From Bosea vestrisii (GTDB taxonomy: Bacteria; Pseudomonadota; Alphaproteobacteria; Rhizobiales; Beijerinckiaceae), in NCBI RefSeq assembly GCF_030144325.1, contig NZ_CP126307.1, positions 459,748 to 523,747 on the forward strand: DNA of 64,000 bases, in the 5' to 3' direction. Of the stretch, positions 27,427 through 44,204 are shown piece after piece (within the stretch, counting starts at the first letter, position 1; each line of letters starts with the position of its first letter). A program made the translations under genes and the position numbers. The notes beneath the pieces are model-generated. The model saw nothing but the letters and a program-made list of their open reading frames with translations, searched no databases and had not been told where the DNA came from.

Positions 27427-29662
27427 GCGCCTGAAAGCCCCACCCGCCGCCGGCGTTCCGATCCTGCAGATCGCGGGCTTGAATGTCTTCTACGGCCGCT
27501 CGCACGCCGTCCAGGGTGTCGACCTCACGCTGCAGCACGGCGTCCTCTCCGTCGTCGGTCGCAATGGCATGGGCAAGACGACCATGTGCAAGGCGATCAT
27601 GGGGCTGGTCCCGATCGCATCGGGCTCGATCCGCTTCTTCGGCGAGGAGATCGCCGGCCGCTCGCCGGCCGAGGTGGCGCGACTCGGCATCGGCTATGTG
27701 CCGCAAGGCCGCCGGCTCTGGCGCTCGCTGACGGTCGACGAGCATTTGCGGCTGATGCAGCGCGGCAAGCGCGGCGCCTGGACGCCGGAGCGCATCTACG
27801 AGGTCTTCCCGCGCCTGGCCGAGCGCCGCAGCAATGGCGGCGGCCAGCTCTCCGGCGGCGAGCAGCAGATGCTGGCGATCAGCCGGGCGCTGCTGCTCAA
27901 TCCCCGCTTGCTGGTCATGGACGAGCCGACCGAGGGGTTGGCGCCGGTCATCGTCGCCCATGTCGAGGAGATGCTGGTCCGGCTCGCCGACCAGGGCGAT
28001 GTCGCGATCCTGGTGATCGAGCAGAACATCGGCGTCGCCACGCAGATGTCCGACCCCGTCGCGATCATGGTCAACGGCCGGATCAACCGCATCATCGCCT
28101 CGGCGACGCTCGCCGGCGACCGCGAGCTGCAGCAGCGCCTGCTCGGCGTCGGCCGCCACGGCCATGACGATACCGATGCGGCCTTGGACACCGCGCGTCC
28201 CGGCACGGCCGCAGAGGCCGCCTCCCCCGCCCCGACCGGACCGATCCGCGTCTATGTCTCGAACCCGGTTATCCCGAACCGCTGGTCACAAGCCGTGCCG
28301 GCCGCCCGTATCGAGGCTCAGGCCCGCACCATCTCGCGCCCGACGCTGGCGACCCGCGATGGCCAGCCGATCGGCGGGGTCCGGCCGCTCGCGGCTGCGG
28401 CGAACAGCGAGCCCTATGTGGTCGTCGCCGGCACGCTCGACACCAAGGGCGAGGAGCTGCGTTTCATCCGCGACCTGATCCGGGCCGAGGGGTTGCGCAC
28501 CCGTCTCGTCGATCTGTCGACATCCGGCCGCAGTGCCGGGGGTGACGTCACCCCGCAAGAGGTCGCCCTCGCCCATCCGAAAGGCTCGGCCGGCATCTCC
28601 TCAGGCGATCGCGGCACGGCGGTCGCGGCGATGACCGAGGCGTTCAAAGCCTGGCTGCCGCGCCAGCAGGGCCTGCTCGGCATCATCTCGGCCGGCGGCT
28701 CGGGCGCCACCGCGATGGTAACGCCGGCGATGCAGGCGCTGCCGGTCGGCCTGCCCAAGTTGATGATCTCGACCATGGCGTCGGGCGATGTCCGCGCCTA
28801 TGTCGGCGCCACCGACATCGCGATGCTGCACGCCGTCACCGATGTGCAGGGCATCAACCGTGTCTCGCGCCTCGTGCTCGGCAATGGTGCGCACGCCATC
28901 GCCGCCATGGCCAAGGCCCGCCTCGCCGAGCTCAAGCCCGAAGGGCCGCGCCGCCGGGAGCCCGAGAAGCCGCTGGTCGGGCTCACCATGTTCGGCGTGA
29001 CCACGCCTTGCGTCCAGCAAGTCTCCAGGCTCCTCGCCGCGGAATGGGAACCGCTCGTCTTCCACGCCACCGGCACCGGTGGCCGCTCGCTGGAGAAGCT
29101 GGTCGATTCCGAGCTCGTCAGCGCGGTGATCGACGTCTCGACCACTGAGATCTGCGACATGCTGATGGGCGGCATCCTGCCGGCGACGGAGGACCGTTTC
29201 GGCGCGATCATCCGCACCCGCATCCCCTATGTCGGCTCGGTCGGCGCGCTCGACATGGTGAACTTCGCCGCGCCCGAGAGCGTGCCCGAGCGCTATCGCG
29301 GCCGCCTCCTCTATCCGCACAACCCGCAGATCACCCTGATGCGGACCACGTCGGAGGAGAACACGCGTATGGGCCGCTGGATCGGCGAGCGGCTGAACCA
29401 GATGGAAGGGCCGGTCCGCTTCCTGATCCCCGAGCTCGGCGTCTCCGCCCTGGATGCACCCGGCCAGCCTTTCCACGACCCGTCCGCCGATGCGGCGTTG
29501 TTCCAGGCGCTGGAGCAGACGGTGCGCACCAGTTCGAACCGGCAGCTCATCCGCCTGCCGCTCCACATCAACGACCCCGCCTTCGCCTCGGCATTGGTGC
29601 AGCAGTTCCGCACCCTGCACGCCGGGAGGCGGCGCGAGCGGGCCGGCGGAGGCAGGTCATGA
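27419..29662 (+). CDS. ABC transporter ATP-binding protein (LivF-like, aa 1-~245) continuing in frame into a UPF0261/Tm-1-like domain (aa ~330-747); possible fusion
   Basis: N-terminal GRNGMGKTT...[16 protein letters not shown]...[13 protein letters not shown] is a LivF-like ATPase, normally ~240 aa ending about ...[10 protein letters not shown]. There is no stop for another 1.5 kb. After an Ala/Pro-rich ~85-aa linker comes ...[24 protein letters not shown]...[21 protein letters not shown]...[12 protein letters not shown]..., a UPF0261 (PF06792) domain. An in-frame GTG at 28418 ([13 protein letters not shown]) could be an independent UPF0261 start. Confidence 0.55.
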
Positions 29663-30540
29663 CGAGCTTCGACAAGAAGGCCCTGCTGAAACGCTTCCGG
29701 GCGATGATCGCCAGGGGCGAGCCGATTGTCGGCGGCGGCGCCGGCACGGGCCTGTCCGCCAAATGCGAAGAGGCCGGCGGGATCGACCTGATCGTGATCT
29801 ACAATTCCGGCCGCTACCGCATGGCCGGCCGCGGCTCGCTCTCCGGGCTGATGCCCTATGGCGACGCCAACGCCATCGTCATGGAGATGGCGGCCGAAGT
29901 GCTGCCGGTCGTGAAGACAACGCCGGTGATCGCCGGCGTCTGCGGCACCGATCCGTTCCGGCGCATGGATGTCTTTCTCGACGAGGTGAAGCGCATCGGC
30001 TTTGCCGGCGTGCAGAACTTCCCGACCGTTGGCCTGATCGACGGCACCTTCCGCGCCAATCTCGAAGAGACCGGCATGGGCTTTGGGTTGGAGGTCGAGA
30101 TGATCGCCCTTGCCAACGCCAAGGGCCTGCTGACCACACCTTACGTCTTCTGCGAGGACGACGCCCGCGCGATGGCAAAAGCCGGCGCCGACATCATCGT
30201 CTGCCATCTCGGTCTCACCACCGGCGGCTCGATCGGCGCCGAAACGGCGCTCAAGCTCAAGGACTGCCCGGCGCTGGTCGAGCGCTGGGCGAAGGCTGCG
30301 CTCGCCGTGAAGAAGGATGCGATCATCCTCGTCCATGGCGGGCCTGTCGCCGAGCCGGCCGACGCCGACTTCATCATGAAGAACACGGTCAACTGCCACG
30401 GCTTCTACGGCGCGTCCTCGATGGAGCGCCTGCCGGTCGAGGTCGCGATCCGCGACCAGACCCGTGCCTTCAAGCAGATCGGCCGCGCAGCCAAAGCCAG
30501 CAAGCCGGCACGCAAGCCCGACAAAGGCACGAAACCATGA
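29659..30540 (+). CDS. Phosphoenolpyruvate hydrolase-like TIM-barrel protein (PF09370; homolog of the Tm-1 C-terminal domain)
   Basis: ...[61 protein letters not shown]...VCGTDPFR... is the characteristic PF09370 N-terminus. ATGA overlap with the preceding ORF and a GGAGG SD. Confidence 0.8.
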
Positions 30541-30551
30541 GCATTCGGCTC

Positions 30552-30680
30552 ACCCTCAGCCCTCATCCTGAGGAGCCGCGAAGCGGCGTCTCGAAGGATG
30601 ATCCAGGAGACTCCGGAACCATCTGGAGCATCCTTCGAGACGCGCCTGCGGCGCTCCTCAGGATGAGGGCTGAAGGGGAA
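30552..30680. repeat. Nested palindromic REP/MITE-like element (20-bp perfect outer inverted repeat + 13-bp inner inverted repeat)
   Basis: Outer arms CAGCCCTCATCCTGAGGAGC / GCTCCTCAGGATGAGGGCTG; inner arms GTCTCGAAGGATG / CATCCTTCGAGAC. Spurious translations read ...HPEEPRSGVSKDD...ILRDAPAALLRMRAEG..., a pattern I recall from a widespread alphaproteobacterial intergenic repeat family. Confidence 0.5.
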
Positions 30681-30715
30681 GGCGCGAACGCGGCGCTGGC
30701 GGGGAGAACATCACC

Positions 30716-33471
30716 ATGACGGGGCAACTGATCGGATCGCTGATCCTCTGGCTGATCGTGGCGGTGATCATCATCGCCATCGTCGTCTATCTGGTGAACT
30801 GGCTCTACCGCCGGTCCTCGAAGGAGGTCTCCTTCGTCCGCACCGGCCTGTTCGGCGAAAAGGTGGTGATCAATGGCGGCGCCTTCGTGCTGCCGATCAT
30901 CCACGACGTCACGCCGGTCAACATGAACGTGCTGCAGCTCGCGGTGACGCGGGCGAGCAACGATGCGCTCATCACCCGCGACCGGATGCGCGTCGACATC
31001 GACGCCGAATTCTATGTCCGAGTGAAGCCGGAGCGGCAGTCGGTCTCCATCGCAGCCGCCACGCTCGGCCGGCGCACCCTGCAGCCGGACCAGCTCCATG
31101 CCCTCCTGTCCGGCAAGTTCATCTCCGCTCTCAGGACGGTCGCCTCCGAGATGACGATGGAGGAGATGCACGAGCAGCGCGGCGCCTATGTCCAGCGCGT
31201 CAAGGATGCCGCCGCCGAGGCGCTCGACCAGAACGGCCTCCTGCTGGAATCGGTTGCGCTCACCGATCTCGACCAGACCGACCTGCAATACTTCAACCCG
31301 TCCAACCGCTTCGACGCCGCCGGTCTGACGCGGATCATCGAGGAGATCGAGGACAAGCGGAAGCTTCGCAACGACATCGAGCAGGACTCGATGATCCGCA
31401 TCCGCACCCGCAACCTCGAAGCCGAACGCCAGGCGCTCGACATCGAACGCGAGAGCGAGACGGCGCGTCTCGAGCAGCAGCGCGAAATCGAGATCAAGCG
31501 CGCCATGCAGCGCACCGAGGTCGCCCGCGAGCGCGCCATCCGCGACACCGAGGCGGAGCAGGCCCAGATCACCTCGCGCGAAGAGATCGAGAAATCACGC
31601 ATCGCCAATGAGCGCGGGATCAGCGAAGCACGCATCGCTTCGGAGCGCGACATCCGCCAGCAGGAGATCGCCCGGACGCAGGCCGTCGAGGAGGCGGAGA
31701 TCGCCGCGCGCGAGCATGTCGAGAAGGCGCGCATCGCCAACGAGCAGACGATCAATGCCGTCCGCATCGCCTCCGAACGCGAGATCAGGCAGCAGGAGAT
31801 CGAGCGCACCAGGGTGCTGGAAGCAGCCGAGATCGAAGCGCGCGAGTCGACCGAGAAGGCGCGCATCCTGCAGGAAACCGCGGTGAGTGCCGAGCGCATC
31901 ACCCGCGAGCAGGAGATCCGCAATCGCGAGATCGAGCGCACCCGCACGCTCGACCAGGAAGACATCGCGGCGCGCGAGGCGGTCGAAACCTCCCGCATCG
32001 GCCAGGAAGAGCGCGTGCGCGCCCTCCAGATCGCCCGCAACAGAGCGCTGGACGAGGCTGAGATCAGCGCGCGTGAAGCGGTCGAGAAGGCAAGGATTGC
32101 CCAGGAGGACGCGATCACGGCCGACCGGATCGCCCTAGACCAGCGCAAGAGCCTGCTCGAGATCGGGCGTACCGAAGCGATCGACACCGCCGAAATCTCG
32201 GCCCGCGAAGCGACCGAAGCCGCCCGCATCGGCCAGGAGAAAGCCGTCGCGGCCGGTCGCATCGCCGCCGAACTCGCGACTAAGGGGCTCGAGATCAAGC
32301 GCAATGCCGAGCTCGACACCGCCGAGCTGAAGCGCCGCGACGCGGTCGAGCGCCAGCGGATCGCAACCGAGCTCGGTCTCGACGAAGAGCGGATCAATTC
32401 GAGCAAGACCCGCGAGATGCTGCAGATCGCCCAGAAGAAGGCGGTCGAGGTCGCCGAGGAAGAGCGCGCTATCGTGCTCGCCGCCAAGAAGGTCGAACGC
32501 GCCGACGCCGACAAGACACTGCGCCAGGCCGAGATCACCGCGCGCCAGCATGTCGAGACCGTCGACATCGCCCGCGAGCAGGCGCTGGAAGCGGTGCGGA
32601 TCGAGCGTCGCCGCGCGCTTGAGCAATTGGAAATCGCGCGCAATCAGGCGCTGCAGGAGGCGCAGATCGTCTCGAACGAGGAAGTCGAGCGGGCGCGTAT
32701 CTCCTCCGATCGCGGCCTCGACGAGGCCCGTATCGGTCGCCAGCGCGAGCTGCGCAAGCTCGAGATCGGGCGCGAACGCGAGGTCGAGGCGGCCGCCATG
32801 GACAAGGCGATCGCGCTCTACGCCAAGTCGCTGGAGGAATCGGCGGCGCAGGTCAGTGCCGAGATTGCCCGCGCCAAGGCGGTCGAGGCCGAGGAAAAGG
32901 TCAAGACCGTCCGCGAGAGGAGAGCGCGCAGCGGCGCAAGACCGTCGAGATCCTGCTCGCCGAGAAGGCCGCCGAAGAATCCCGCATTGCGTCCGAGGCC
33001 GAGAAGGTGCGCCGCGCCGTCGATGCCGAGGCGCAGAAGCTGCTCTACGAGGCCGAGAACGTGCTCAGCGACGGCGCCCGCTACGGGCTGTTCCGGCGGC
33101 GCCTGCTCGACAAGATCGAGGGCATCGTCCGCGAGAGCGTCAAGCCGATGGAGAAGATCGAAGGCATCCGCATCCTTCATGTCGATGGGCTCGCCGGTGC
33201 GGCCAGCGGCGCCGGTGGCGCCGCACGCTCGCCCACCGACGAGGTCATGGAGTCGGCGCTGCGCTACCGGGTCCAGGCGCCGATGATCGACCAGGTGCTG
33301 AAGGAGATCGGCATCGAGGGCGGCAATCTCGCCAAGATGGGCGGGCTCATGCGCGAGGCCTCGGACATGCAGCGCGTCGCCAAGGAAGCGCAGCCGGCCA
33401 AGCCGAAGGACAGTGGCGGTGAACCTGCCCCCGAAGGTGGCGGTCGCTCCGGCCCCCGCAAGAAATCGTGA
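30716..33471 (+). pseudogene. Flotillin-like SPFH/band-7 protein (YqiK-like) with long coiled-coil tandem repeats; single frameshift near 32915-32925
   Basis: N-terminal TM plus SPFH (...VSFVRTGLFGEKVVINGGAFVLPIIHDVTPVNMNVLQLAV...), then ~10 imperfect ~44-aa repeats (EAEIAAREHVEKARIANEQTINAVRIASEREIRQQEIERTRVL...). The frame-1 tail after ...KVKTVRE is Arg/Ser/Pro garbage. The true C-terminus (QRRKTVEILLAEKAAEESRIASEAEKVRRAVDAEAQKLLYEAENV...ILHVDGLAGAASG...) continues in the +2 frame to 33471. Confidence 0.65.
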
Positions 33472-33482
33472 GGCGCTGACCG

Positions 33483-33920
33483 ATGGCCCGCGTCTACGTT
33501 TCCAGCGTCATCGCCGCTCCCGCCGTCAAGGTCTGGGCCCGGGTGCGCGACTTCAACGGCCTGCCGAACTGGCACCCCCGCATCGCCGAAAGCCGGATCG
33601 AGAACGGCGAGCCGGCCGACAAGGTCGGCTGCATCCGCGCCTTCTCGCTGCGCAGCGGCGACCGGCTGCGAGAGCAGCTGCTCGGCCTCTCCGACTACGA
33701 TATGTTCTGCACCTATGCGATCCTCGACTCGCCGATGCCGCTGACGAACTACGTCGCGACGCTCAGGCTGACGCCGATCACCGACCAGGAGCGGACCTTC
33801 ATCGAGTGGTCGGCCGATTTCGACTGCGCGCCGGAGCGCGAGGCCGAGCTCGTCGCCGGCATAGGCACCAATGTCTTCCAGGGCGGTTTCGACGCCCTCA
33901 AGCGCGCCTTTGGGGGATAG
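33483..33920 (+). CDS. SRPBCC (Bet v1-like) family protein, CoxG-like
   Basis: 145 aa: ...SVIAAPAVKVWARVRDFNGLPNWHP...TLRLTPITDQERTFIEWSADFDC... is a polyketide-cyclase/CoxG-type fold. It lies immediately upstream of the Cox-like subunits. Confidence 0.7.
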   Translation: MARVYVSSVIAAPAVKVWARVRDFNGLPNWHPRIAESRIENGEPADKVGCIRAFSLRSGDRLREQLLGLSDYDMFCTYAILDSPMPLTNYVATLRLTPITDQERTFIEWSADFDCAPEREAELVAGIGTNVFQGGFDALKRAFGG

Positions 33921-33922
33921 CC

Positions 33923-34375
33923 ATGCCCCATGTTGTCCGCAGCACGATCATCGATACGCCGGCGGACCGGCTCTGGTCGGTCCTGCGCGACTTCAACGGA
34001 CACGACAAATGGCACCCCATCGTGGTGCGGAGCGAGATCGAACGCGCCTACCCGGCCGACCGGGTCGGCTGCGTCAGGCGCTTCGTCCTGCGCGACGGCA
34101 GCGAATTGCGCGAGCAGCTGCTTACGCTCTCCGATCTCGAGATGACCTTCAGCTACTGCCTGCTCGATACGCCGATCCCGCTGTTCAACTACGTCGCCCA
34201 TGTCCGGCTGCTGCCGGTGACCGACGGCAATCGCAGCTTCTGGCACTGGGAAAGCCGCTTCACCACGCCACCCGGGCGGGAGGCGGAACTCGCCAGACTC
34301 GTCGGCGACGAGGTCTACACCAACGGCATCGAGGCGGTCCGCCGCCTGCCCGCGATCGTCGGCGAGGAGGTCTGA
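33923..34375 (+). CDS. SRPBCC (Bet v1-like) family protein, CoxG-like paralog
   Basis: 150 aa: ...STIIDTPADRLWSVLRDFNGHDKWHP...HVRLLPVTDGNRSFWHWESRFTT... It is clearly paralogous to the preceding gene. Confidence 0.7.
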   Translation: MPHVVRSTIIDTPADRLWSVLRDFNGHDKWHPIVVRSEIERAYPADRVGCVRRFVLRDGSELREQLLTLSDLEMTFSYCLLDTPIPLFNYVAHVRLLPVTDGNRSFWHWESRFTTPPGREAELARLVGDEVYTNGIEAVRRLPAIVGEEV

Positions 34376-34376
34376 C

Positions 34377-35198
34377 ATGCTCGATCTGAGAACCTGCGCG
34401 AGCCTGTCGGAAGCCGCCGGCATCGTCTCCGGCGATCGCCAGGCGCTGCTGATCGGCGGCGGCACCCTGGTGATGCGTGAGGTCAACGAGGGCCGGCTGA
34501 CCGAGGGCACGCTCGTGCGCGTCACTGATCCGGCCTTCCGCCAGATCAGCGCCGGCGGCGCCCGCGTCGAGCTCGGTGCCGGCGTGACCATGGCGATGGT
34601 GCTGGCCAACCGCGAGCTCGCCTGTCTGCATGCGCCTGCACGCGGCATCGGCGGGCCGGCGGTCCGGACGATGGCGACGATCGGCGGCAATCTTTTCGCC
34701 GCTGCGCCCTATGGCGACTTCACCGTGGCGCTGCTGGCGCTCGATGCGCAGGTCGTGCTGCAATCCGGCTATGGCTCGGGCCGGGCGGTATCGCTGGAGG
34801 ATTTCCTGAGCGCGCGCGAACGCGGCGGCCAGGGCCTGGTCACCGCCGTTCAGTTCGCCAGGCCGCAGAACCCGCCCGAGCTCCACTTCCGCAAGATCAG
34901 CCGGGTCAAGCCGAAGGGCATCTCGGTGCTCTCGATCGCGGCCTATTTGCCGCTCTCGGGTGGCCGCGTCACGCAGGCGCGCGTCGCCTATGGCGCGATG
35001 GCGCCGACCCCGATCCGCGCCCGCGGCGTCGAGCGCGCCCTCGACGGCAAGCCGCTCGACCAGGCGGCGATCCAGGCGGCAAAGCAGGCGGCGCTCGAAG
35101 GCTGCCGGCCGGCGACCGACGCAATCGCGAGCGAGTGGTACCGGCGCGAGATCCTCCCCGTCCATCTCGGCCGGCTCCTGGCCGGCGAACCCCGCTGA
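34377..35198 (+). CDS. Xanthine dehydrogenase family FAD-binding subunit (CoxM-like medium subunit)
   Basis: ...ALLIGGGTLVMREVNEGRL... and ...MATIGGNLFAAAPYGDFTVALLALDAQVVLQSGYG... match the FAD_binding_5 plus CO_deh_flav_C layout. Confidence 0.85.
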   Translation: MLDLRTCASLSEAAGIVSGDRQALLIGGGTLVMREVNEGRLTEGTLVRVTDPAFRQISAGGARVELGAGVTMAMVLANRELACLHAPARGIGGPAVRTMATIGGNLFAAAPYGDFTVALLALDAQVVLQSGYGSGRAVSLEDFLSARERGGQGLVTAVQFARPQNPPELHFRKISRVKPKGISVLSIAAYLPLSGGRVTQARVAYGAMAPTPIRARGVERALDGKPLDQAAIQAAKQAALEGCRPATDAIASEWYRREILPVHLGRLLAGEPR

Positions 35199-35209
35199 GG
35201 AGGCGCGCC

Positions 35210-35692
35210 ATGGCCAAGCTCCCGGTCCAGTTCCGCCTCAATGGCAGCGATCGCGCCACCTTCGTCGACCCGGCGAGCAATCTGCTCGATACGCTCCGCC
35301 GCGGGCTCGGCGACTTCGGCCCGAAATATGGCTGCGGCCAGGGCACCTGCGGCGTCTGCACCGTGCTGGTCGACGGCGAGCCGCAACTCGCCTGCCTGAC
35401 GCTCGCGGCCTCCTGCGAGGGCCGCCAGATCGAGACCACCTCCGGGATGGCTGATGGCCCCGAGCTGCATCCGCTGCAGGCCGCCTTCATGGACCATTTC
35501 GCCGCGCAATGCGGCTTCTGCACGCCGGGCATGCTGACCGCCGCGCGGGCGCTGCTGGCAAAGAACCCGCATCCAAGCCGGGACGAGGTCGTCGAGGCGA
35601 TCAGCGGCAACATCTGTCGCTGCACCGGTTACGAGCCGATCATCGCCGCCATTCTCGCCGCAGCGGACGCGCCCGGCGCGCGCCGGGCCTGA
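35210..35692 (+). CDS. (2Fe-2S)-binding small subunit of xanthine dehydrogenase family (CoxS-like)
   Basis: Plant-type ferredoxin cysteines GCGQGTCGVCTVLVDG and a second cluster motif CGFCTPGML...[18 protein letters not shown] upstream. Confidence 0.85.
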   Translation: MAKLPVQFRLNGSDRATFVDPASNLLDTLRRGLGDFGPKYGCGQGTCGVCTVLVDGEPQLACLTLAASCEGRQIETTSGMADGPELHPLQAAFMDHFAAQCGFCTPGMLTAARALLAKNPHPSRDEVVEAISGNICRCTGYEPIIAAILAAADAPGARRA

Positions 35693-35706
35693 AGAAGGAA
35701 CCCGCC

Positions 35707-37470
35707 ATGCTCGAGATGCGCAAGGACCTGTTCGCCGACGAGCGCGACGACAATCTCAACGTCGTCGGCAAAGGCGTGCAGCGCCAGGATATGCCCGGCC
35801 ATGTCACGGCACGCACCCGCTTCTTCGACGACCACGCCTTCGACGGCATGCTGCATCTCAAGGTGGTACGCAGCCCGCATCATCATGCCCGCATTCGTTC
35901 GATCGACGTCTCGGCCGCCGAGCGTGCACCCGGCGTCAAGCGTGTGCTGCGCGGCGCCGATGTGCCCGTGAACAAGAACACGCTGCTCAGCCTGATCAAT
36001 TTCGGCAAGGACGACGAGCCTTCGCTGGCGGTGAACAAGGTCTGCTACAAGGGCGAGCCGGTCGTGGCGATCCTCGCCGACAGCGAGGCGCAGGCGCAGG
36101 CCGCCTGCAAACTCGTCCGGATCGACTACGATCCGCTGCCGGCGGTGTTCGACGTCGAGGAGACTCTGAAAGCCGGCGCGCCGGTGGTCAACGAGACCTA
36201 TCCCGGCAACTACTTCGAATATCACGAGCGCTTCGACCATCAGAAGCTGCGCTTCGGCGATGTCGAGCGCGGTTTTTCCGGCGCCGACATCGTGATGGAG
36301 CATCGCTACCAGATGTCCCCGATCGAGCATGCGCCGACCGAGACCAATGGCTCGATCGCCGCGCCCGAGCAGAATGGCCGCTTCGTCGTGCACTCCTGCG
36401 CCCAGGGCCTGTTCTTCGCGCTGGGAACGACTGCCAAGATCGTCAATGTCGAGTCGAACCAGCTGCATTTCATCGGCGGCACCGTTGGTGGCGGCTTCGG
36501 CGGCAAGGTCGACTCCCTGACCGAGCCGCTCGCCGTGCTCGGCGCCATGCTGACCGGCCGGCCGGTGCGCTTCGTCCTCGATCGCGAGGAGGAGATGCTC
36601 TACGGCTCGCCGCGCGGCGCCGAGCGCATCTACATCAAGGACGGATTGATGCGCGACGGGCGGATCGTCGCCCGCCATATCCGCAGCTATTTCGACGCCG
36701 GCGCCTATACTCGCCTGTCGAGCTACGCGGCGATCAAATGCACGGCGCATGTGCCGGGACCGTACTGGATCCCGAACGTCACCTCCGACATCTATGTCGC
36801 CTATACCAATCGCTGCCCGTCTACCGCCATGCGCGGCTTCGGCGTCACCGCGGTCGATTTCGCGCTCGAGGTCCAGATGGATCGCCTTGCCGAAGCCGCG
36901 AACATGGACCCGATGGAGCTGCGCATCCTCAACGCCTATCGCGATGGCGATATGAAACCGCATCGGCGCGCCGCCAAGAACACGGCGCTGGTCGAATGCG
37001 TGCAGGTCGCGGCCGGGAAGGCGAACTGGCCACTATCCGAGCAGGCGAAGCGGGCGTCCTCGCTGATCGGCGGCGGCGCCGGCGAGCGCGCGCAGATCCC
37101 GGCGACCCAGCTCGACGCCCGCGGCCAGATCGGCCGGCCCGACACGCGCAGCGGGCCCGTGACGCAGGTTCTGCCCGCCGGCACGACCCGGATCGCGCCG
37201 AGCAAGCAGCCGGTGATGGAAGGCGCTCGCGACGGGCGCGCGACGCCGACGCAGGTGCCGCGCTACGAGCCGCCACGGCCAGCGACCGGGGTACCGCCTT
37301 CCCCCTATCAGCCAGCGCCGCCGCCATCCTACCAGCCGGCCGGTTCGCATCCGGCACCGCCCGCCTACCAGCCGCCGCCCGCTCCCGCTGCCCCGCCGCC
37401 GGCTGCGCCGGCGCAGACGCAGCACGGCGCGGTGCGGTTCTCTTCCGTCTTCGGCACGAGGAGGCGCTGA
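35707..37470 (+). CDS. Xanthine dehydrogenase family molybdopterin-binding subunit, N-terminal two-thirds (CoxL-like), with C-terminal Pro/Gln-rich tail
   Basis: Ald_Xan_dh_C hammerhead plus the start of the MoCo domain (...HLKVVRSPHHHARIRSIDVS..., ...YVAYTNRCPSTAMRGFGVT..., resembling the XDH PSNTAFRGFG loop). Ends with ...PSPYQPAPPPSYQPAGSHPAPPAYQPPPAPAAPPP... before the stop. Confidence 0.8.
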   Translation: MLEMRKDLFADERDDNLNVVGKGVQRQDMPGHVTARTRFFDDHAFDGMLHLKVVRSPHHHARIRSIDVSAAERAPGVKRVLRGADVPVNKNTLLSLINFGKDDEPSLAVNKVCYKGEPVVAILADSEAQAQAACKLVRIDYDPLPAVFDVEETLKAGAPVVNETYPGNYFEYHERFDHQKLRFGDVERGFSGADIVMEHRYQMSPIEHAPTETNGSIAAPEQNGRFVVHSCAQGLFFALGTTAKIVNVESNQLHFIGGTVGGGFGGKVDSLTEPLAVLGAMLTGRPVRFVLDREEEMLYGSPRGAERIYIKDGLMRDGRIVARHIRSYFDAGAYTRLSSYAAIKCTAHVPGPYWIPNVTSDIYVAYTNRCPSTAMRGFGVTAVDFALEVQMDRLAEAANMDPMELRILNAYRDGDMKPHRRAAKNTALVECVQVAAGKANWPLSEQAKRASSLIGGGAGERAQIPATQLDARGQIGRPDTRSGPVTQVLPAGTTRIAPSKQPVMEGARDGRATPTQVPRYEPPRPATGVPPSPYQPAPPPSYQPAGSHPAPPAYQPPPAPAAPPPAAPAQTQHGAVRFSSVFGTRRR

Positions 37471-37471
37471 C

Positions 37472-38515
37472 ATGGCCCGTCACGAAGGCAGGGGCATGGC
37501 CTCGGTCAACTACCCGATCGGCATGAATCTCGGCGGCGATCCGAGCCAGGCCCTGATCCACTCCAACCCGGACGGCAAATTCACCGTCGCGCTCTCGGCG
37601 ATCGATCTCGGCCAGGGCATGAAGCAGGTCTCGCGCCAGATCGCGGCCGAGACGCTCGGCGTTCCCGTCGAGGACGTCTATGTCGACACCGCCGACAGCG
37701 ACACCGGCCCGCACGACATGGGCTCCTTCGCCTCGCGCGGCACCCATCGCATGGGCAACGCCATCATCGTCGCCGCCCGCGAGGCGCGCGGCGTGCTGCT
37801 CGAAGCCGCAGCCGAGGAGCTCGAGGTCAACGCCGCCGACCTCGTCACCGACGGGCTCGGCAACATCCATGTCCGCGGCGCGCCCTCGCGCAGCATCACG
37901 GTCAAGGCGACGGCGCAGGCGGCGCAGTTCAAGCAGGGCAAGACCATCGCCGGGCGCGGCATCTTCCTGATTCCGCTCTCGGCCGTCGATGCCGAGACCG
38001 GCGAGATGAACCCGAACACCGCCTTCGCCCATGCCTGCCTCGTCGCCGATGTCGCCGTCGATGACGAGACCGGCGAGGTCGAGGTGCTCAGGATGACCAG
38101 CGCCTACGAGCTCGGCCGCGTCATCAACCCGCGCATGGTCGAGCAGCAGCTCGTCGGCGGCGCCTGGATGGGGATCAGCCACGCGCTCTATGAGACGCCG
38201 GAGCCGTACTATCCCAATCCCGAGCACGGCCCGCGCGACTTCAACGAATATTTGATGCCGGGACCGGGCGACATCGCGCCCTATCACGTCACCGTGCTGG
38301 AGCGACCGGCGCCGGACGGCCCGTTTGGCGGCAAGGGCCCGGGCGAGATGTGCGCCAATCCGGTGCTGCCGGCGGTCGCCAATGCCGTCTACAACGCCAT
38401 CGGCGTCCGGGTCGACGAATTGCCGATCACGCCGGAGAAGATCCTGCGGGCTATCCGGGCCAATGGCGGCGTCAAACCGGGGCCTCGTCGCGGCGGCCCG
38501 GTGAACTGGCGGTGA
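37472..38515 (+). CDS. Xanthine dehydrogenase family molybdopterin-binding subunit, C-terminal third (separate ORF)
   Basis: Starts 1 nt after the previous stop, in the +1 frame, with an AGGAGG SD 7 nt upstream. ...ALSAIDLGQGMKQVSRQIAAETLGVPVEDVYVDTADSDTGPHDMGSFASRGT... and ...YELGRVINPRMVEQQLVGGAWMGISHAL... complete the MoCo domain. Confidence 0.75.
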   Translation: MARHEGRGMASVNYPIGMNLGGDPSQALIHSNPDGKFTVALSAIDLGQGMKQVSRQIAAETLGVPVEDVYVDTADSDTGPHDMGSFASRGTHRMGNAIIVAAREARGVLLEAAAEELEVNAADLVTDGLGNIHVRGAPSRSITVKATAQAAQFKQGKTIAGRGIFLIPLSAVDAETGEMNPNTAFAHACLVADVAVDDETGEVEVLRMTSAYELGRVINPRMVEQQLVGGAWMGISHALYETPEPYYPNPEHGPRDFNEYLMPGPGDIAPYHVTVLERPAPDGPFGGKGPGEMCANPVLPAVANAVYNAIGVRVDELPITPEKILRAIRANGGVKPGPRRGGPVNWR

Positions 38516-38519
38516 CGGC

Positions 38520-39404
38520 ATGGCGCTGAGGACGACCGTCGCTGGCATTTCGAGCCCGGAGGACCTCGCCGAGGCCCTGCAGGCGGCGATGTATCTCGCC
38601 GATGACGGCATCGCCACGGCCGGCTACCTCTCGCTCGCGCTCGGCAAGCCGCTGCTGCTCGAAGGCGCGCCCGGCGTCGGCAAGACCGAGGCGGCGAAAG
38701 CGCTCGCCGGCATTCTCGGGCGCCAGCTCATTCGTCTCCAGTGTTTCGAAGGCATCGACGCGGCGGCTGCCCTCTATGAGTGGAACTATCCGCGCCAGAT
38801 GCTCGCCATCCGCCAGGCGAAGGAAGGCGAGCAGCTCGACATCTACCGCGACGACTTCCTGATTGAGCGGCCGATGCTGACGACGCTACGGCGGCCGGAA
38901 TCGACCGTGCTGCTGATCGACGAGATCGACCGCTCCGACCATGAATTCGAGGCCTTCCTGCTCGAATTCCTCTCGGATTTCTCGATCTCGATCCCCGAGC
39001 GCGGCACGTTGCGCGCCGCCGAGCGGCCGGTCGTGATCCTGACCTCGAACCGGACGCGCGAGCTGCACGAGGCGCTCAGGCGCCGCTGCGTCTACCACTA
39101 TATCGCCTATCCCGAGCCGGAGCGCGAGGCGCAGATCATCATGCTGCGCTCCTCCGCCGTCGCCGAGAGCACGGCGCGGGCCGTCGTCCAGGCCGTCGGA
39201 TTGTTGCGGCAGGAGCCGCTCGCCAAGCCACCGGGCGTCGCCGAGGCAGTCGACTGGGCCGAGGCCGCGACGGCGCTCGCGCAGACCGGCGCACCCTGGC
39301 CGGAGGCCTTCCGCCGCTCGCTCGGCGCCGCGATCAAGGACGAGGAAGACCTCGTCCATCTGCGGCCGCGCCTGCCGCTCTTCATCCCGGGGCTGGCGGC
39401 ATGA
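38520..39404 (+). CDS. MoxR family AAA+ ATPase (CoxD-like)
   Basis: Walker A LLEGAPGVGKTEAAKALA and Walker B VLLIDEIDRSD, with the AAA_5 layout. Confidence 0.85.
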   Translation: MALRTTVAGISSPEDLAEALQAAMYLADDGIATAGYLSLALGKPLLLEGAPGVGKTEAAKALAGILGRQLIRLQCFEGIDAAAALYEWNYPRQMLAIRQAKEGEQLDIYRDDFLIERPMLTTLRRPESTVLLIDEIDRSDHEFEAFLLEFLSDFSISIPERGTLRAAERPVVILTSNRTRELHEALRRRCVYHYIAYPEPEREAQIIMLRSSAVAESTARAVVQAVGLLRQEPLAKPPGVAEAVDWAEAATALAQTGAPWPEAFRRSLGAAIKDEEDLVHLRPRLPLFIPGLAA

Positions 39405-39713
39405 GGATTTCAACGTCATTGCGAGCGAAGCGAAGCAATCAAGGGGGACGTGGAGCCCTGCCGCCCCCGGATTGCTTCATCGCTTCGCGCCTCGCAATGA
39501 CGGACGCTGCAAACGCGTTCCCTTCCCCCTTGTGGGGAAGGGTTAGGGATGGGGGCGAACGACCGGGTACAAGACAACTCGTAAAAGCGGATCTGTCTAT
39601 TTCCCAGCGAATTTGCCCCGACTTTCCGCCCCCCACCCCTGCCCCTCCCCACAAGGGGGAGGGGTTCTCCGCGCCTCTCCGCCTTTCGCAAATGGAGAAA
39701 GGAGGTACGCGCC
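39405..39713. repeat. Cluster of palindromic REP/MITE-like repeats between the MoxR and VWA genes
   Basis: Inverted pair TCATTGCGAGCGAAGCGAAGCAATC ... GATTGCTTCATCGCTTCGCGCCTCGCAATGA, plus two G/C palindromes CCTTCCCC-TTGT-GGGGAAGG and CCCCTCCCC-ACAA-GGGGGAGGGG. Spurious translations read SLRAKRSNQ...DCFIASRLAMTD...PSPLWGRV, which I recall as typical of known alphaproteobacterial repeat families. Confidence 0.5.
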
Positions 39714-40829
39714 ATGATCGCGCCACTCCCCGCCGCCATCAGGCTCTTCGTCGCCTTCCCGGCGCTGCTGCGCGAGCACGGTATCGCGGCTGCCCCAGAG
39801 CAGGCGACCAGCTTTTTGATGGCGATCAAGCTGCTCGGTCCGCGCAGCATCGCTGATATCCGCAAGGCGGCGATCGCGACGCTTAGCCCCCATCCCGAAC
39901 AGCGCGAACGCTTCGACGCGCTGTTCGACATGCATTTCCTCGGTGGCGCATTCGCCGAACCAGGCGATGACGACTTCGCCCCTGACGAGGACATCTCCGT
40001 CCAGGAGGACACCGGCTCGCGCGAGGTGCTGATCGGCGAGGAAGCCAACGAGACCGGCCAGGTCGCGACCGGCGCCGAGGCCCTGTCGATCCGGCAGCTG
40101 AAGACGCTCGACGACAGCGAGACCTTGCGCCGTTTCGGCCGGGCGCTGCCGGCCGCCCTGCCCCGCCGCCGCGGCTATCGTCATCGCACGGCGCGGCGCG
40201 GACCGATGGTCGACCTCGCCCGCAGCCTCAAGGACGCGATCCGTCATGACGGCGAGGTGATGAGCCTGAAGCGGCTCCGGCGGGTGACGCGGCCGCGACC
40301 GATCCTGCTGCTGATCGATGTCTCAGGCTCGATGAAGCAGCGCAGCGACGCCAATCTCGCGCTGGCGCATACGATCGTGCAAGCGACGCAGCGGGTCGAG
40401 GTCTTCACCTTCGGTACCCGCCTCACCCGCGTCACGCGGGCGCTGCGGCGCAAGCGGCGCGAGCAGGCGCTGGCCGAAGCCTCCGGCCTCGTCGCCGACT
40501 GGGATGGCGGCACGCGCATCGGCGATGCGCTGCAGGCCTTCCTCGCCGTGCCCCGCTTCGCGCCCTACGCCCGTGGCGCGGTCGTCGTCGTGCTTTCGGA
40601 TGGTCTCGAACGCGGCGATCCATCGGCTCTGGTCGGCGCCGTCGCTCGGCTGGCACAGCGCGCCCATCGCATCGACTGGCTGACGCCGCTCGCCGCCGAT
40701 CCCGGCTACCGGCCCGAGACCGAAGCGCTTCGGCTGATCGCGCCGCGCCTCGCCAGCCTCTCGGATGGCGCCAGCACGGCGCGGATTTGCCGGCACATCC
40801 TGTCACTCGGAGGCTCGCTAGCCGCATGA
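39714..40829 (+). CDS. VWA domain-containing protein (CoxE-like)
   Basis: ...RPILLLIDVSGSMKQRSDANLALAHTIV... (MIDAS DxSxS) sits in the C-terminal half. This is the typical partner of a MoxR ATPase in cox/xdh clusters. Confidence 0.8.
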   Translation: MIAPLPAAIRLFVAFPALLREHGIAAAPEQATSFLMAIKLLGPRSIADIRKAAIATLSPHPEQRERFDALFDMHFLGGAFAEPGDDDFAPDEDISVQEDTGSREVLIGEEANETGQVATGAEALSIRQLKTLDDSETLRRFGRALPAALPRRRGYRHRTARRGPMVDLARSLKDAIRHDGEVMSLKRLRRVTRPRPILLLIDVSGSMKQRSDANLALAHTIVQATQRVEVFTFGTRLTRVTRALRRKRREQALAEASGLVADWDGGTRIGDALQAFLAVPRFAPYARGAVVVVLSDGLERGDPSALVGAVARLAQRAHRIDWLTPLAADPGYRPETEALRLIAPRLASLSDGASTARICRHILSLGGSLAA

Positions 40830-41707
40830 TCGGCATCATCGATTCCCATTTCCACATCTGGCGGCAGGCCGACCTGCCTTGGCTGCTCGGCCCGATGCAA
40901 CCGCGCATCTTCGGGCCTTACGAGCCGATCCGGCGCGATTACCCGATCACCGAATATCTCGGCGATTGCCGCCCGGCAGGCGTGACCGAAGCCGTCTATG
41001 TCCAGGCCAATTGGGCGGTCGAGCGCTATCTCGACGAGGTGACTTACGTCTCGCAGGCCTCGGAGGAAGCCGGTTTCCCGATCGCCATCGTCGCCTATGC
41101 CGACATGCTCGCCGGCGATGTCCGCCCACAGCTCGACCAGCTTGCGCGCAACGCCCGTGTGCGCGGCGTGCGCATGCAATTGCACTGGCACGAGAACACG
41201 CTCTACCGCTTCGCCAGCGGGCCTGACCTCGCGCGCGATCCGCGGCTGATCGCCAATGTCGGGCGGCTGGCGGAGTACGGCTTCAGCTTCGACCTCCAGG
41301 TCTTCGCCGGTCAGATGGCGGGCGCCGCCGAGCTCGCCGCCGCCTGCCCGGGCGTGACCTTCGTGCTCCAGCATGCCGGCATGCTGGAGAACCTTTCCCC
41401 AGAAGGCATCGCCGCCTGGCAAGCGGGCATGAATCTGCTCGCAGGCCAGCCCAACATCGCCAGCAAGCTGTCGGGTCTCGGCACTTTCCTCCGCCGCAAC
41501 GATCCCGAGACAATTGCCTTCATCGCCGGCGAGACGCTCAGCCTGTTCGGCGCCGCGCGCTGCCTGTTCGGCTCCAATTTCCCGATCGAGAAGCTCTGGA
41601 CGACCTACGCCGAGCTGATCGAGGCGCATCGCGCCGCCGTGCCCGAAACGGCGCAGGCCGCCGTGTTCAATGAGACTGCAAGGCGGGTCTACCGCCTCGA
41701 CCAATAA
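40826..41707 (+). CDS. Amidohydrolase family protein (amidohydrolase-2/PF04909-like TIM-barrel metal-dependent hydrolase)
   Basis: MIGIIDSHFHIW... (HxH metal site at the N-terminus), ...VLQHAGM... and ...LFGSNFP... follow the LigI/ACMSD-like pattern. ATGA overlap with the VWA gene. Confidence 0.75.
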   Translation: MIGIIDSHFHIWRQADLPWLLGPMQPRIFGPYEPIRRDYPITEYLGDCRPAGVTEAVYVQANWAVERYLDEVTYVSQASEEAGFPIAIVAYADMLAGDVRPQLDQLARNARVRGVRMQLHWHENTLYRFASGPDLARDPRLIANVGRLAEYGFSFDLQVFAGQMAGAAELAAACPGVTFVLQHAGMLENLSPEGIAAWQAGMNLLAGQPNIASKLSGLGTFLRRNDPETIAFIAGETLSLFGAARCLFGSNFPIEKLWTTYAELIEAHRAAVPETAQAAVFNETARRVYRLDQ

Positions 41708-41724
41708 TCAAGGGGAGGACGTTC

Positions 41725-42573
41725 ATGGCCCTCGAAATCAAGATCCTCGACTATGGCGATATCGAGCTGGAATCGAGCTTCCTCGTTCTCGGCCGCGATT
41801 GCGGCCGCACAAGGCGCGTGCCGACCTATGGCTTCCTGATCCTCGGCGGTCCCTGGCCGGTCGTGGTCGATACCGGCTACCGCCACAACCAGATCATGGA
41901 GAGCCTCGGTATGCGCGGCCTCCAGTTCCATGAAAACATGATCGAGAACCAGCTCTCGAGGCACGGCGTGCGGATGGGCGATGTGCGCTATGTCATGCAC
42001 ACCCATCTCCATATCGACCATGCCGGCAAGGACGAGCTCTTCCCGATGAACACCACGGTGCTCGTCAACCGGCGCGAGCTCGAATACTCCGTCTCCGGGC
42101 TGATGCACCCGCAATATCCGGCGCCCGACATCAAGCACCTGATCGACCGGCTCCATACGCGCGACGCGCTGCGCTTCGAGGATCTCGAACTCTCGGGGAT
42201 GATCGAGCTCTTCCCCGGCTGCTATCTCGAAGCCGCCGGCGCCCACACCGAAGGCTCGATGAACGTCCATGTCGACACCAATGAGGGCCGCGCCATCATC
42301 TGCGGCGACGTGATCTACGACTTCAACGACCAGATCGTCACGCCCTTCCACGAGCTCCACGCCAACGAGCCGCGCACCACCGGCAATCACGGTGTCTCCA
42401 AGCGCGAGGAGAAGGCGGCGATCAAGAAGCTGCTCTCGGCCGGTGCGTTCCTGCTGCCGGTGCACGACAAGCCGGCCAAGATCGCCCATGGCCAGGTCGT
42501 CGGCCGCATGGACATGGCCGTGCCCGGCCCGGTGGTGCAGTCGCTGCCGGCGCGAAACTGGTTCGCGGCCTGA
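41725..42573 (+). CDS. MBL-fold metallo-hydrolase (N-acyl homoserine lactonase/AttM-AiiB-like)
   Basis: HTHLHIDHAG (HxHxDH) plus downstream His/Asp ligands (...GAHTEGSMNVHVD..., ...CGDVIYDF...). Confidence 0.8.
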   Translation: MALEIKILDYGDIELESSFLVLGRDCGRTRRVPTYGFLILGGPWPVVVDTGYRHNQIMESLGMRGLQFHENMIENQLSRHGVRMGDVRYVMHTHLHIDHAGKDELFPMNTTVLVNRRELEYSVSGLMHPQYPAPDIKHLIDRLHTRDALRFEDLELSGMIELFPGCYLEAAGAHTEGSMNVHVDTNEGRAIICGDVIYDFNDQIVTPFHELHANEPRTTGNHGVSKREEKAAIKKLLSAGAFLLPVHDKPAKIAHGQVVGRMDMAVPGPVVQSLPARNWFAA

Positions 42574-42587
42574 CGGGGCCCGCCAGC

Positions 42588-44204
42588 ATGACCACGCATC
42601 TCGCCGTCCAGCCCGGCTTCGCCGACCTGATCGACCTCTGGGCGCCGGTGCGCCAGCTCGGCACGGGCTTCGAGTTCGGCGAGGGCCCAATCTGGCATCC
42701 GCACGAGCAGCACCTGCTGTTCTCGGACATGCCGGGCGATGTCCGCCGCCGCTGGGACAAAAGCGGCGTCCGCGAGGTCAGGCGGCCGGCGAACAAGTGC
42801 AACGGCATGACCTATGACGCCGCGCTCGACCTCATCGTCTGCGAGCACGCGACCTCGGCGCTGGTGCGCGAGCGGCCGGACGGGCAGCACGAGACCATCG
42901 CCTCGCATTTCGAGGGCATGGAGCTCAACAGCCCCAACGACGTCGTCGTGAAGTCGGACGGGGCGATCTATTTTTCCGATCCCTGGTATGGCCGCATGCC
43001 GGTCTTTGGCGTCGAGCGGCCGCGCCAGCTCGGCTTTCAGGGGGTCTACCGCGTTCCGCCAGAGGGTGGAGCGCCGCAGCCCCTGGTCGACCGCTATCTC
43101 TTCGACCAGCCAAACGGGCTCTGCTTCTGCCCGAGCGAGGACCGGCTCTTCGTCAACGACACCGTCCAGCACAATATCCGCGTCTTCGACGTCAAGCCGG
43201 ATGGCCGGCTCGGCCCCGGCCGCATCTTCGCCTCCGGCATCGTCGGCTCCGAGCCCGGCGTCCCCGACGGGATGAAATGCGATGCGCAGGGCAATATCTG
43301 GGTCACCGGACCGGGCGGCGTCTGGGTCTATTCGATCAAGGGCGAGCTGATCGGCAAGCTGCGCGTGCCCGAGCTCGTCGGCAACCTCACCTGGGGCGGG
43401 GCGGACTGGCGCACGCTCTTCCTCACCGCGAGCCATTCGCTCTACGCTGTCGAGACCAAGGTCGGGCCGCGCCGTGAGCCCTACATGAAGGCGGCCGCCC
43501 AGCAACTGGGCCGCAGCGCCGCGGCGGAGCGCCCACTCGCCGACGCCAGCCCCGCTGCCTCCGTCTCGGCAAACGGCACGAAGAAGGCCGCATCCGGCTA
43601 CCGGCTCGATCCGTCGCGCTGCGCCCTGATCATCCAGGACATGCAGAACGACGTCGTCATGGAGGGCGGCGCCTTTGCCAGCTCGGGCTCGCCGGAGCAT
43701 TGCCGGCAGCAGAACGCGATCGCCAATGGCGCGCGGCTGGCGCAGGTGGCGCGGGCGCGCGGCATTCCGGTGATCCATGTCTGGTTTGTCGTCGAGGCCG
43801 GCGCGCCCGGCGTCACCATGAACGCGCCATTGTTCGAAGGCCTGGCCGATGCCAAGGCGCTGGTGCGCGGCAGTTGGGGCGCAGCGCCCGTGCCGGGCCT
43901 CGAGGCGCAGAGCGGCGACCATATCGTCGAGAAGCAGCGCATGAGCGCCTGGGAAGGCACGCGGCTCGAAACCGTACTCAAGGCGCGCGGCCGCGACATC
44001 GTCATCGTCACCGGTGCCTGGACCAACATGTCGATCGAGCACACCGCCCGCACCGGCGCCGACAAAGGCTATTTCATGGTGGTGCCGGAGGATGCCTGCT
44101 CGACGATGAACGCCGAATGGCACACCGCGTCTGTCAACTACGCGCTGCAGAATGTCGGCGTCGTCACCGATGTCGACGCCGTCATCGCCGCGACCGGTGC
44201 GTGA
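42588..44204 (+). CDS. Two-domain protein: SMP-30/gluconolactonase/LRE-like beta-propeller (aa 1-~300) fused to isochorismatase-family cysteine hydrolase (aa ~345-538)
   Basis: N-terminal ...GFEFGEGPIWHPHEQHLLFSDMPGDVRRRWDKSG...GMELNSPNDVVVKSDGAIYFSDPWYG...PNGLCFCPSEDRLFVNDT...DGMKCDAQGNIWVT... (SGL, PF08450). C-terminal ...ALIIQDMQNDVV...IPVIHVWFVVEAG...IVIVTGAWTNMSIEHTARTGADKGYFMVVPEDACS... is the isochorismatase fold with a catalytic Cys. No stop separates the two domains. Confidence 0.7.
   Translation: MTTHLAVQPGFADLIDLWAPVRQLGTGFEFGEGPIWHPHEQHLLFSDMPGDVRRRWDKSGVREVRRPANKCNGMTYDAALDLIVCEHATSALVRERPDGQHETIASHFEGMELNSPNDVVVKSDGAIYFSDPWYGRMPVFGVERPRQLGFQGVYRVPPEGGAPQPLVDRYLFDQPNGLCFCPSEDRLFVNDTVQHNIRVFDVKPDGRLGPGRIFASGIVGSEPGVPDGMKCDAQGNIWVTGPGGVWVYSIKGELIGKLRVPELVGNLTWGGADWRTLFLTASHSLYAVETKVGPRREPYMKAAAQQLGRSAAAERPLADASPAASVSANGTKKAASGYRLDPSRCALIIQDMQNDVVMEGGAFASSGSPEHCRQQNAIANGARLAQVARARGIPVIHVWFVVEAGAPGVTMNAPLFEGLADAKALVRGSWGAAPVPGLEAQSGDHIVEKQRMSAWEGTRLETVLKARGRDIVIVTGAWTNMSIEHTARTGADKGYFMVVPEDACSTMNAEWHTASVNYALQNVGVVTDVDAVIAATGA

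Follow-up and report, generated by a model that had tools for sequence, protein, structure and literature searches.

A 64,000-nucleotide stretch of the Bosea vestrisii genome (contig NZ_CP126307.1, positions 459,748 to 523,747; hereafter the window, whose own coordinates are used throughout) carries two consecutive genes, denoted L and M, that together encode the molybdenum cofactor subunit of an apparently intact molybdenum hydroxylase of the xanthine oxidase family. Judged from sequence, the enzyme is of the four-subunit NdhF/S/L/M type, and the two-gene molybdenum subunit is an old, conserved architecture, known already from nicotinate dehydrogenase. The split itself is therefore not new; the new part is a C-terminal tail of the L protein that ends in a conserved tip. 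On balance, we consider it likely that the locus encodes a split NdhL/NdhM-type enzyme to which a tail was added later, as a flexible tether presenting a docking peptide; the tethering and docking part of this reading is what we infer as the most likely role of the tail.

The L gene (35707..37470, plus strand) runs from an ATG at 35707 to a TGA at 37468-37470 and encodes 587 amino acids (aa), and the M gene (37472..38515, plus strand) runs from an ATG at 37472 to a stop codon at 38513-38515 and encodes 347 aa, in the +1 frame relative to L. A single base, C 37471, lies between the TGA and the ATG. The Shine-Dalgarno (SD) sequence of M, AGGAGG (37459..37464, plus strand), is embedded in the final L codons (ACG AGG AGG CGC, encoding T-R-R-R), 7 nucleotides (nt) before the M start codon. 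This layout, described earlier in a sequence-only reading of the same DNA, was confirmed in both coordinates and sequence. With the SD of M inside the end of L and the stop and start codons 1 nt apart, the two genes are predicted to be translationally coupled; a scan for promoters and terminators found none between L and M. The longest open reading frame (ORF) that holds the L gene opens at an ATG at 35509 and overlaps the preceding iron-sulfur subunit gene (35509-35706); the start at 35707, chosen in the sequence-only reading, is backed by homologues and by an upstream GAAGGA. Pfam domains are partitioned between the two products, with Ald_Xan_dh_C (residues 34-145) and MoCoBD_1 (residues 178-409) in L and MoCoBD_2 (residues 5-268) in M. 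The molybdenum cofactor subunit would accordingly be made as two polypeptides, L, the N-terminal half, with the hammerhead and MoCoBD_1 domains, and M, the C-terminal half, with MoCoBD_2 and the catalytic Glu.

Comparison with solved structures places this break precisely. Among all chains of the Protein Data Bank (PDB), the top match of L is NdhL, the "large molybdopterin subunit" of the Eubacterium barkeri nicotinate dehydrogenase (3hrd_A; L residues 18-439 align with NdhL residues 6-415 of 425, E 3e-56), and the top match of M is NdhM, the "medium molybdopterin subunit" (3hrd_B; M residues 4-330 align with NdhM residues 3-327 of 330, E 4e-48). The break point is at the NdhL/NdhM position of PDB 3HRD, and in this alignment of the junction to homologues, which the sequence-only reading had proposed, zero residues are missing. 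The sequence motifs are intact as well: L retains the molybdenum cofactor motif GGGFGGK and the active-site loop AMRGFG (AFRGFG in NdhL), and M retains GKGPGE (GAKGVGE in NdhM), with the Glu of the GxGE motif. In E. barkeri, the four genes ndhF, S, L, and M are coupled (PMC10331938); the Bosea genes follow the same F-S-L-M order, with genes for the FAD-binding, [2Fe-2S], L, and M subunits. Thus, domain partition, break point, operon order, and motifs are all those of a split NdhL/NdhM-type subunit. Because both polypeptides begin and end where those of the solved split enzyme do, with nothing missing, the split is not damage; the earlier premise that this subunit is normally one protein of ~750-800 aa overlooks the known split form. 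The two enzymes also differ. NdhL, at 425 aa, has no extension, whereas the Bosea L protein has ~138 extra C-terminal residues, and the E. barkeri enzyme is selenium dependent and comes from an anaerobe. The substrate of the latter is nicotinate; for the window cluster, NCBIfam gave no equivalog above cut-off and thus no substrate assignment.

The locus was next compared among genomes, one per species. The scan returned 80 loci, all from Hyphomicrobiales or so labelled, in genera including Bosea, Pseudolabrys, Bradyrhizobium, Phreatobacter, Methylobacterium, Microvirga, Enterovirga, Aquabacter, Rhabdaerophilum, and Chelatococcus; the locus of Bosea sp. Tri-44 shares 97-98.6% identity with the window. 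The junction was read in the 75 loci in which the end of L lies on the contig, and all 75 have two separate genes, an L stop codon followed by M. A single continuous, untailed subunit, the ortholog that would have spoken for a lineage-specific disruption, was not seen in any of them, and 76 of the Pro-rich tails were aligned. The junction GGAGGcgnTGAnATG, with a stop-N-ATG arrangement, is kept in 67 of the 75 loci; six have stop-NN-ATG or stop-NN-GTG, so that M lies in the +2 frame, and in two (L003 and L018) a GC-rich palindromic repeat element of 128 or 255 nt sits exactly between L and M. Such variation in the relative frame, together with the inserts between the genes, excludes a frameshift-fusion mechanism and shows that M is translated as a gene of its own. 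Across loci, M is 79-99% identical and the L core 74-99% identical, and the pairwise ratio of nonsynonymous to synonymous substitution rates (dN/dS) is 0.10 at the sampled end of the L core (residues 401-440). The two-polypeptide subunit thus appears to be under purifying selection, which bears out the first of the explanations offered from the sequence alone, namely, a large subunit that is truly made as two polypeptides and has a Pro-rich tether. Among the database matches listed, at least 120 homologues of 574-623 aa contain only the two L domains; the tailed L orthologues span 560-623 aa. Among soil Hyphomicrobiales, the cluster occurs widely, in Bosea, Bradyrhizobium, Pseudolabrys, Methylobacterium, and Phreatobacter among others.

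Two other accounts of the split were weighed against these data. One, also considered in the sequence-only reading, is that a frameshift or nonsense change recently disrupted what had been one large-subunit gene and left the cluster inactive. It would explain two adjacent ORFs in different frames, and most characterized members of the family are indeed single chains of ~770 aa. However, the same arrangement recurs in every readable locus across genera, the break falls at the NdhL/NdhM position without loss of residues, the motifs and the stop/start arrangement are conserved, M has a dedicated SD, and both the low dN/dS at the end of the L core and the identity of M across loci speak for selection; a broken gene is barely credible. 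Classification as a pseudogene was rejected, given that lineage-specific disruption, lost residues, and relaxed selection were all absent, with dN/dS of 0.10-0.33 in the regions sampled. Equally hard to credit is a fused L-M product, with the tail as linker, that arises by readthrough or by a programmed +1 frameshift like that of prfB (SD, codon, UGA-C). The string AGGAGG-CGC-UGA-C superficially resembles the frameshift site of the RF2 gene, but CGC-U is not a slippery context (the P-site codon is CGN), the base after the stop varies (G, C, or A), M lies in the +2 frame in six loci, and two loci carry the 128- to 255-nt inserts. A prfB-like site was accordingly rejected on frame and on the variable spacing (1 nt in 67 loci, 2 nt in 6, and inserts in 2). 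The outcome is mostly corrective: a two-gene molybdenum subunit is legitimate in the xanthine oxidase family, and neither annotators nor automated scanners should label this locus a frameshifted pseudogene.

The relative ages of the split and the tail were examined by an exhaustive HMMER search of representatives clustered at 50% identity. The nearest representative is itself a tailed L protein (P0121, 623 aa, 58% identity). Untailed split L proteins rank next (P0123, 455 aa, 52%; P0128, 450 aa, 45%; P0131, 463 aa, 43%), followed by further ones of 433-439 aa at 38-40% identity (P0135 and P0137-139), and single-chain proteins of ~770 aa, at no more than 40% identity, rank after the split L subunits. 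The untailed split L proteins stop a few residues past the segment that matches window residues ~445-460. In a neighbor-joining tree of the L region, computed without support values, all split L proteins form one clade, and the tailed L proteins are nested among the untailed ones (433-463 aa), as sister to P0123. Because of this nesting, the split predates the tail, and the tail appears to be a later gain in one Hyphomicrobiales lineage. The untailed split enzymes (P0123, P0128, P0131, P0135, P0137-139, and L085-L088), the nearest untailed relatives at 38-52% identity and in one clade with the window protein, share both the split and the F-S-L-M order, with M genes of 333-364 aa, although the contigs of P0123, P0128, and P0132 are too short to show gene neighbors. 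P0123 and P0132 belong to the untailed sister group, at 52-57% identity. They differ in that L ends directly after the "...SS/TS...GGR" segment, at 433-463 aa, and in that neither flotillin nor MoxR/VWA genes are found next to them where context exists. Six unusually long or short single-chain representatives were inspected and had no similar tail; they appeared to be domain fusions or sequences of poor quality. In one metagenomic member of the untailed sister group (P0145), L continues into M in one frame (...NGRRLAMARLRGTGIAAVNYP...), after which the sequence degenerates; this may reflect natural re-fusion of the two genes or a read of low quality.

The tail extends ~138 aa beyond NdhL, the closest solved homologue. 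Past residue 450, the L protein contains 21.7% Pro, 15.2% Ala, 10.1% Gly, and 8.0% Gln, compared with 5.1% Pro in the core. The GC content at third codon positions stays at 0.77-1.0 in the L frame across the tail, which indicates that the tail is read in the normal coding frame. No tandem DNA repeat was found in a search of the tail; three pairs of short imperfect direct repeats (12-23 nt) are present. The tail is clade specific, and alignment of 76 tails shows that it consists of three parts: a conserved block, a spacer, and a tip. The sequence-only reading had described a low-complexity tail of ~100 aa. A tail is indeed present, but it is longer than that, and low complexity is confined to ~42 aa (residues 528-569), flanked by conserved sequence at residues 450-527 and in the last 16 residues.

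The conserved block (residues 450-527; 37054..37287, plus strand) follows the pattern SSLxGGGxGERxQIPATxxDxrGqIGRPxtR...TQtLPAGTxRI...KQPxmEG...VPrYEP, and its first part (GGxxERAxIPxTxxDxxGxIG) is retained in the distant representatives P0121 and P0212. Together with the last core residues (residues 441-527), it has a dN/dS of 0.33. The spacer (37288..37413, plus strand) is a hypervariable, uncharged Pro/Ala/Gln segment with P(S/A)YQP-like motifs. Among 73 orthologues, its length ranges from 30 to 76 aa (median, 46) with a net charge of 0; in the window protein, it contains no charged residue. Insertions and deletions in the spacer are always in frame in the loci with a readable L stop, and its dN/dS is ~0.30, in a region where the alignment is unreliable. 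The C-terminal tip QHGAVRFSSVFGTRRR (residues 572-587; 37420..37467, plus strand) has the consensus QHGAxRFSSVFGTRRR. In a codon table of 68 loci, its first 12 positions (QHGAxRFSSVFG) are nearly invariant as amino acids and free in their codons: for example, one Ser position is encoded by TCT in 10 loci, TCG in 30, TCA in 6, and TCC in 22, and one Arg position by CGG in 29, CGC in 28, CGT in 10, and CGA in 1. Near-invariance with free synonymous change, at a dN/dS of 0.16, indicates that selection acts on the tip at the protein level. Conversely, the two Arg codons before the last one almost always read AGG AGG, the SD of M, so that the terminal Arg-Arg is held at least partly by the ribosome-binding site.

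AlphaFold2 (AF2) was run on fused L and M with a 90-row alignment. The predicted local distance difference test (pLDDT) score exceeds 90 in the L core up to about residue 470 (83 for residues 461-470), falls to 48-60 over residues 471-500, and is below 50 for most of the tail from residue 476, including the spacer, with short stretches at 50-60; with the fused protein as a single sequence, the mean pLDDT is 36.9. The tail therefore has the two features of a linker with a terminal peptide, namely, a variable, in-frame, predicted-disordered linker and a tip conserved at the protein level. The C-terminal linker and C-terminal peptide of FtsZ and the linker and tip of SSB offer a working analogy, with a folded core, a variable low-complexity linker, and an invariant terminal peptide; these proteins are unrelated to L, and the SSB-type tip is acidic, whereas the window tip is basic and Ser rich. 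A six-frame pattern search of the window and 81 loci (~1.1 Mb) found the tip in L genes only, tblastn of the last 30 residues against plasmids gave no match, and the tip sequence was absent from the literature in a full-text search. The literature searched likewise yielded no description of the tail with its conserved tip or of its association with flotillin and MoxR/VWA genes, and we know of no described member of the xanthine oxidase family with a disordered tether that ends in a peptide conserved at the protein level.

With this anatomy, the uncharged spacer would serve as a flexible tether, holding out the tip as a docking peptide for a protein partner to bind, and two candidates are encoded in the cluster. 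One is the membrane flotillin (30716..33471, plus strand; Pfam Band_7, 64.6 bits, and Flot, 118.7 bits), which might keep the enzyme membrane-associated so that electrons can be transferred. The other is a putative maturation pair, a MoxR-type AAA+ ATPase resembling CoxD (38520..39404, plus strand; Pfam AAA/AAA_5, with an NCBIfam MadB-like match below cut-off) and a VWA protein resembling CoxE (39714..40829, plus strand; Pfam VWA_CoxE), which might use the tail as a handle during maturation of the active site. Aerobic CO dehydrogenase (CoxMSL) offers a parallel. It belongs to the same family, its genes are likewise followed by those for MoxR (CoxD) and VWA_CoxE (CoxE) proteins and accompanied by SRPBCC-type accessory proteins, and it sets a precedent for an enzyme recruited to the inner face of the membrane, with which it must make contact to transfer electrons; CoxG is proposed to recruit the enzyme (PMC4240915). 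The parallel is incomplete. CoxL is one chain of ~800 aa without a tail, membrane recruitment of CO dehydrogenase is ascribed to CoxG and not to a tail, and neither the CoxL-specific active-site loop nor CoxF was seen in the window cluster.

Several explanations of the tail compete with, or narrow, its reading as a tether with a docking peptide. A neutral, slippage-prone, repeat-like insertion, tolerated at a surface junction and without function, would fit the hypervariable length and sequence of the spacer, its P(S/A)YQP-like motifs, the short imperfect direct repeats in the DNA, and the existence of untailed relatives. But the frame is kept through every insertion and deletion, no tandem repeat is present, and the dN/dS values of the block and tip, with the free synonymous change in an invariant tip, are those of selected sequence. 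Such an insertion, which the sequence-only reading had listed third, is improbable for the tail as a whole and could hold at most in part, for the spacer with its short in-frame length changes, the block and tip being under apparent purifying selection. Recognition of the tail by the MoxR ATPase and VWA protein, which would grip apo-L during active-site maturation, is a special case of docking. AAA+ machines often engage disordered termini, and the MoxR and VWA genes lie immediately 3' of M in nearly all tailed loci with flanks that reach them. CoxD and CoxE act on folded apo-CO dehydrogenase (PMC4240915). Other CoxD/E-dependent enzymes, however, are not known to have such a tail, and, all considered, this handle is possible but rather unlikely. 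Were it correct, it would provide a testable handle on how MoxR-type chaperones grip molybdoenzymes. Somewhat more doubtful is the specific proposal that the tip is a client-recognition peptide for the co-encoded giant flotillin, by which the ~300-kDa enzyme, a cytoplasmic molybdo-flavo-iron-sulfur protein, would be captured at a membrane microdomain for delivery of electrons to the respiratory chain. If true, the operon would encode a hard-wired pair of bacterial flotillin and client and would offer a testable handle on how bacterial flotillins recognize their clients.

Direct lipid binding by the tip, as an amphipathic membrane-targeting helix like those of MinD and FtsA, is quite improbable. 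The C terminus is basic and contains Phe and Val, in which it resembles the C termini of MinD, and work at the inner membrane face, as by CO dehydrogenase (PMC4240915), would suit such a helix. Yet its hydrophobic moment (0.20-0.39) is not above that of shuffled sequences (the fraction of shuffles reaching it is 0.48-0.81), the most divergent locus (L078) loses the hydrophobic residues, and the near-invariant Ser, Gly, and His argue for specific protein recognition. Finally, an enzyme followed by a disordered linker and a short conserved C-terminal peptide matches the design of encapsulin cargo, but cargo loading into an encapsulin or microcompartment is very improbable: no shell gene was found in the 10 kb to each side in L081 or L083, the tip was found on no other protein in the window, the 81 loci, or plasmids (whole genomes were outside the search), and the tip is unlike the known GSL-type motifs.

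Other observations weigh against the tether with a docking peptide. The AF2 model is confident in the L core only and is silent on docking of the tail. The tail, flotillin, and MoxR/VWA genes co-occur in a single clade, so that their co-occurrence cannot single out a partner. To our knowledge, CoxD/CoxE-dependent enzymes such as CO dehydrogenase function without a tail of this kind. In L078, the tip is degenerate (HGAHRSSSISGMRRR). The window flotillin gene, moreover, carries a 1-nt deletion near 32919 (GAGAG-GAGAGC versus GAGAGCGAGAGC in the ten closest Bosea loci). An intact flotillin of 965 aa (L081) matches the window in frame 2 as far as 32917 and in frame 1 from 32920 onward, which puts the SPFH and Flot domains in different frames. 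The frameshift may reflect either a real pseudogene or a sequencing error; the flotillin gene is the only disrupted gene in the window cluster.

The genes around L and M form a conserved cluster of ~17.5 kb (~26638-44201) that is kept across genera. Its 5' part comprises, in order, ABC transporter genes, a UPF0261 fusion, a PEP-hydrolase-like gene, the giant flotillin gene, and two tandem SRPBCC (Polyketide_cyc2) genes (33483-33920 and 33923-34375, plus strand), the latter identified with Pfam and syntenic in 70 loci. Its 3' part comprises the FAD-binding subunit gene F (NdhF/CoxM-like; 34377..35198, plus strand; Pfam FAD_binding_5 and CO_deh_flav_C), the [2Fe-2S] subunit gene S (NdhS/CoxS-like; 35210..35692, plus strand; Pfam Fer2 and Fer2_2), L, M, the MoxR and VWA_CoxE genes, and conserved hydrolase genes (Amidohydro_2, MBL-fold lactonase-like, and an SGL-isochorismatase fusion; 40826..44201, plus strand). 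The flotillin, SRPBCC, MoxR, and VWA genes are additions relative to the E. barkeri enzyme, and the neighbor genes as a whole are unlike those of the E. barkeri nic cluster. The block from flotillin to the MBL-fold gene is syntenic in nearly all tailed loci with flanks reaching that far, and flotillin lies directly upstream in nearly all tailed loci with sufficient upstream flank (flotN, 65; flotC, 69). The same synteny is found in L083, where identity of the L protein is 58% across the full length and 66% across the core, and in L078, where it is 74% across the core. In L083, a gene for an AraC-type regulator follows the cluster. The composition profile, with a GC content of 0.60-0.70 throughout, gives no signal of a foreign island, and an Rfam scan of the whole window returned no match.

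The flotillin consists of an N-terminal hydrophobic membrane segment, an SPFH domain, a long repeat coiled coil, and the Flot domain. Coiled-coil repeats of ~44 aa make up its center, and their number varies (window 30716-32917, L081:4684-7581, and L083:4651-7845). The protein would be ~918 aa long in the window if the frameshift were repaired, compared with 965 aa in L081 and 1064 aa in L083; the window flotillin is thus ~44 aa shorter than that of L081. Between the window MoxR and VWA genes, the gap (39404-39714) is filled by a GC-rich nested-palindrome repeat (core CCCCTTGTGGGGAGGGG and its complement), and the spacing from MoxR to VWA suggests that this element is absent from some Bosea loci, such as L001. 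Elements of the same kind lie between the L stop and the M start at L003:7762-7889 and L018:7771-8025, and in L003 both an SD-like GGAG and a TGAgATG junction have been restored ahead of M.

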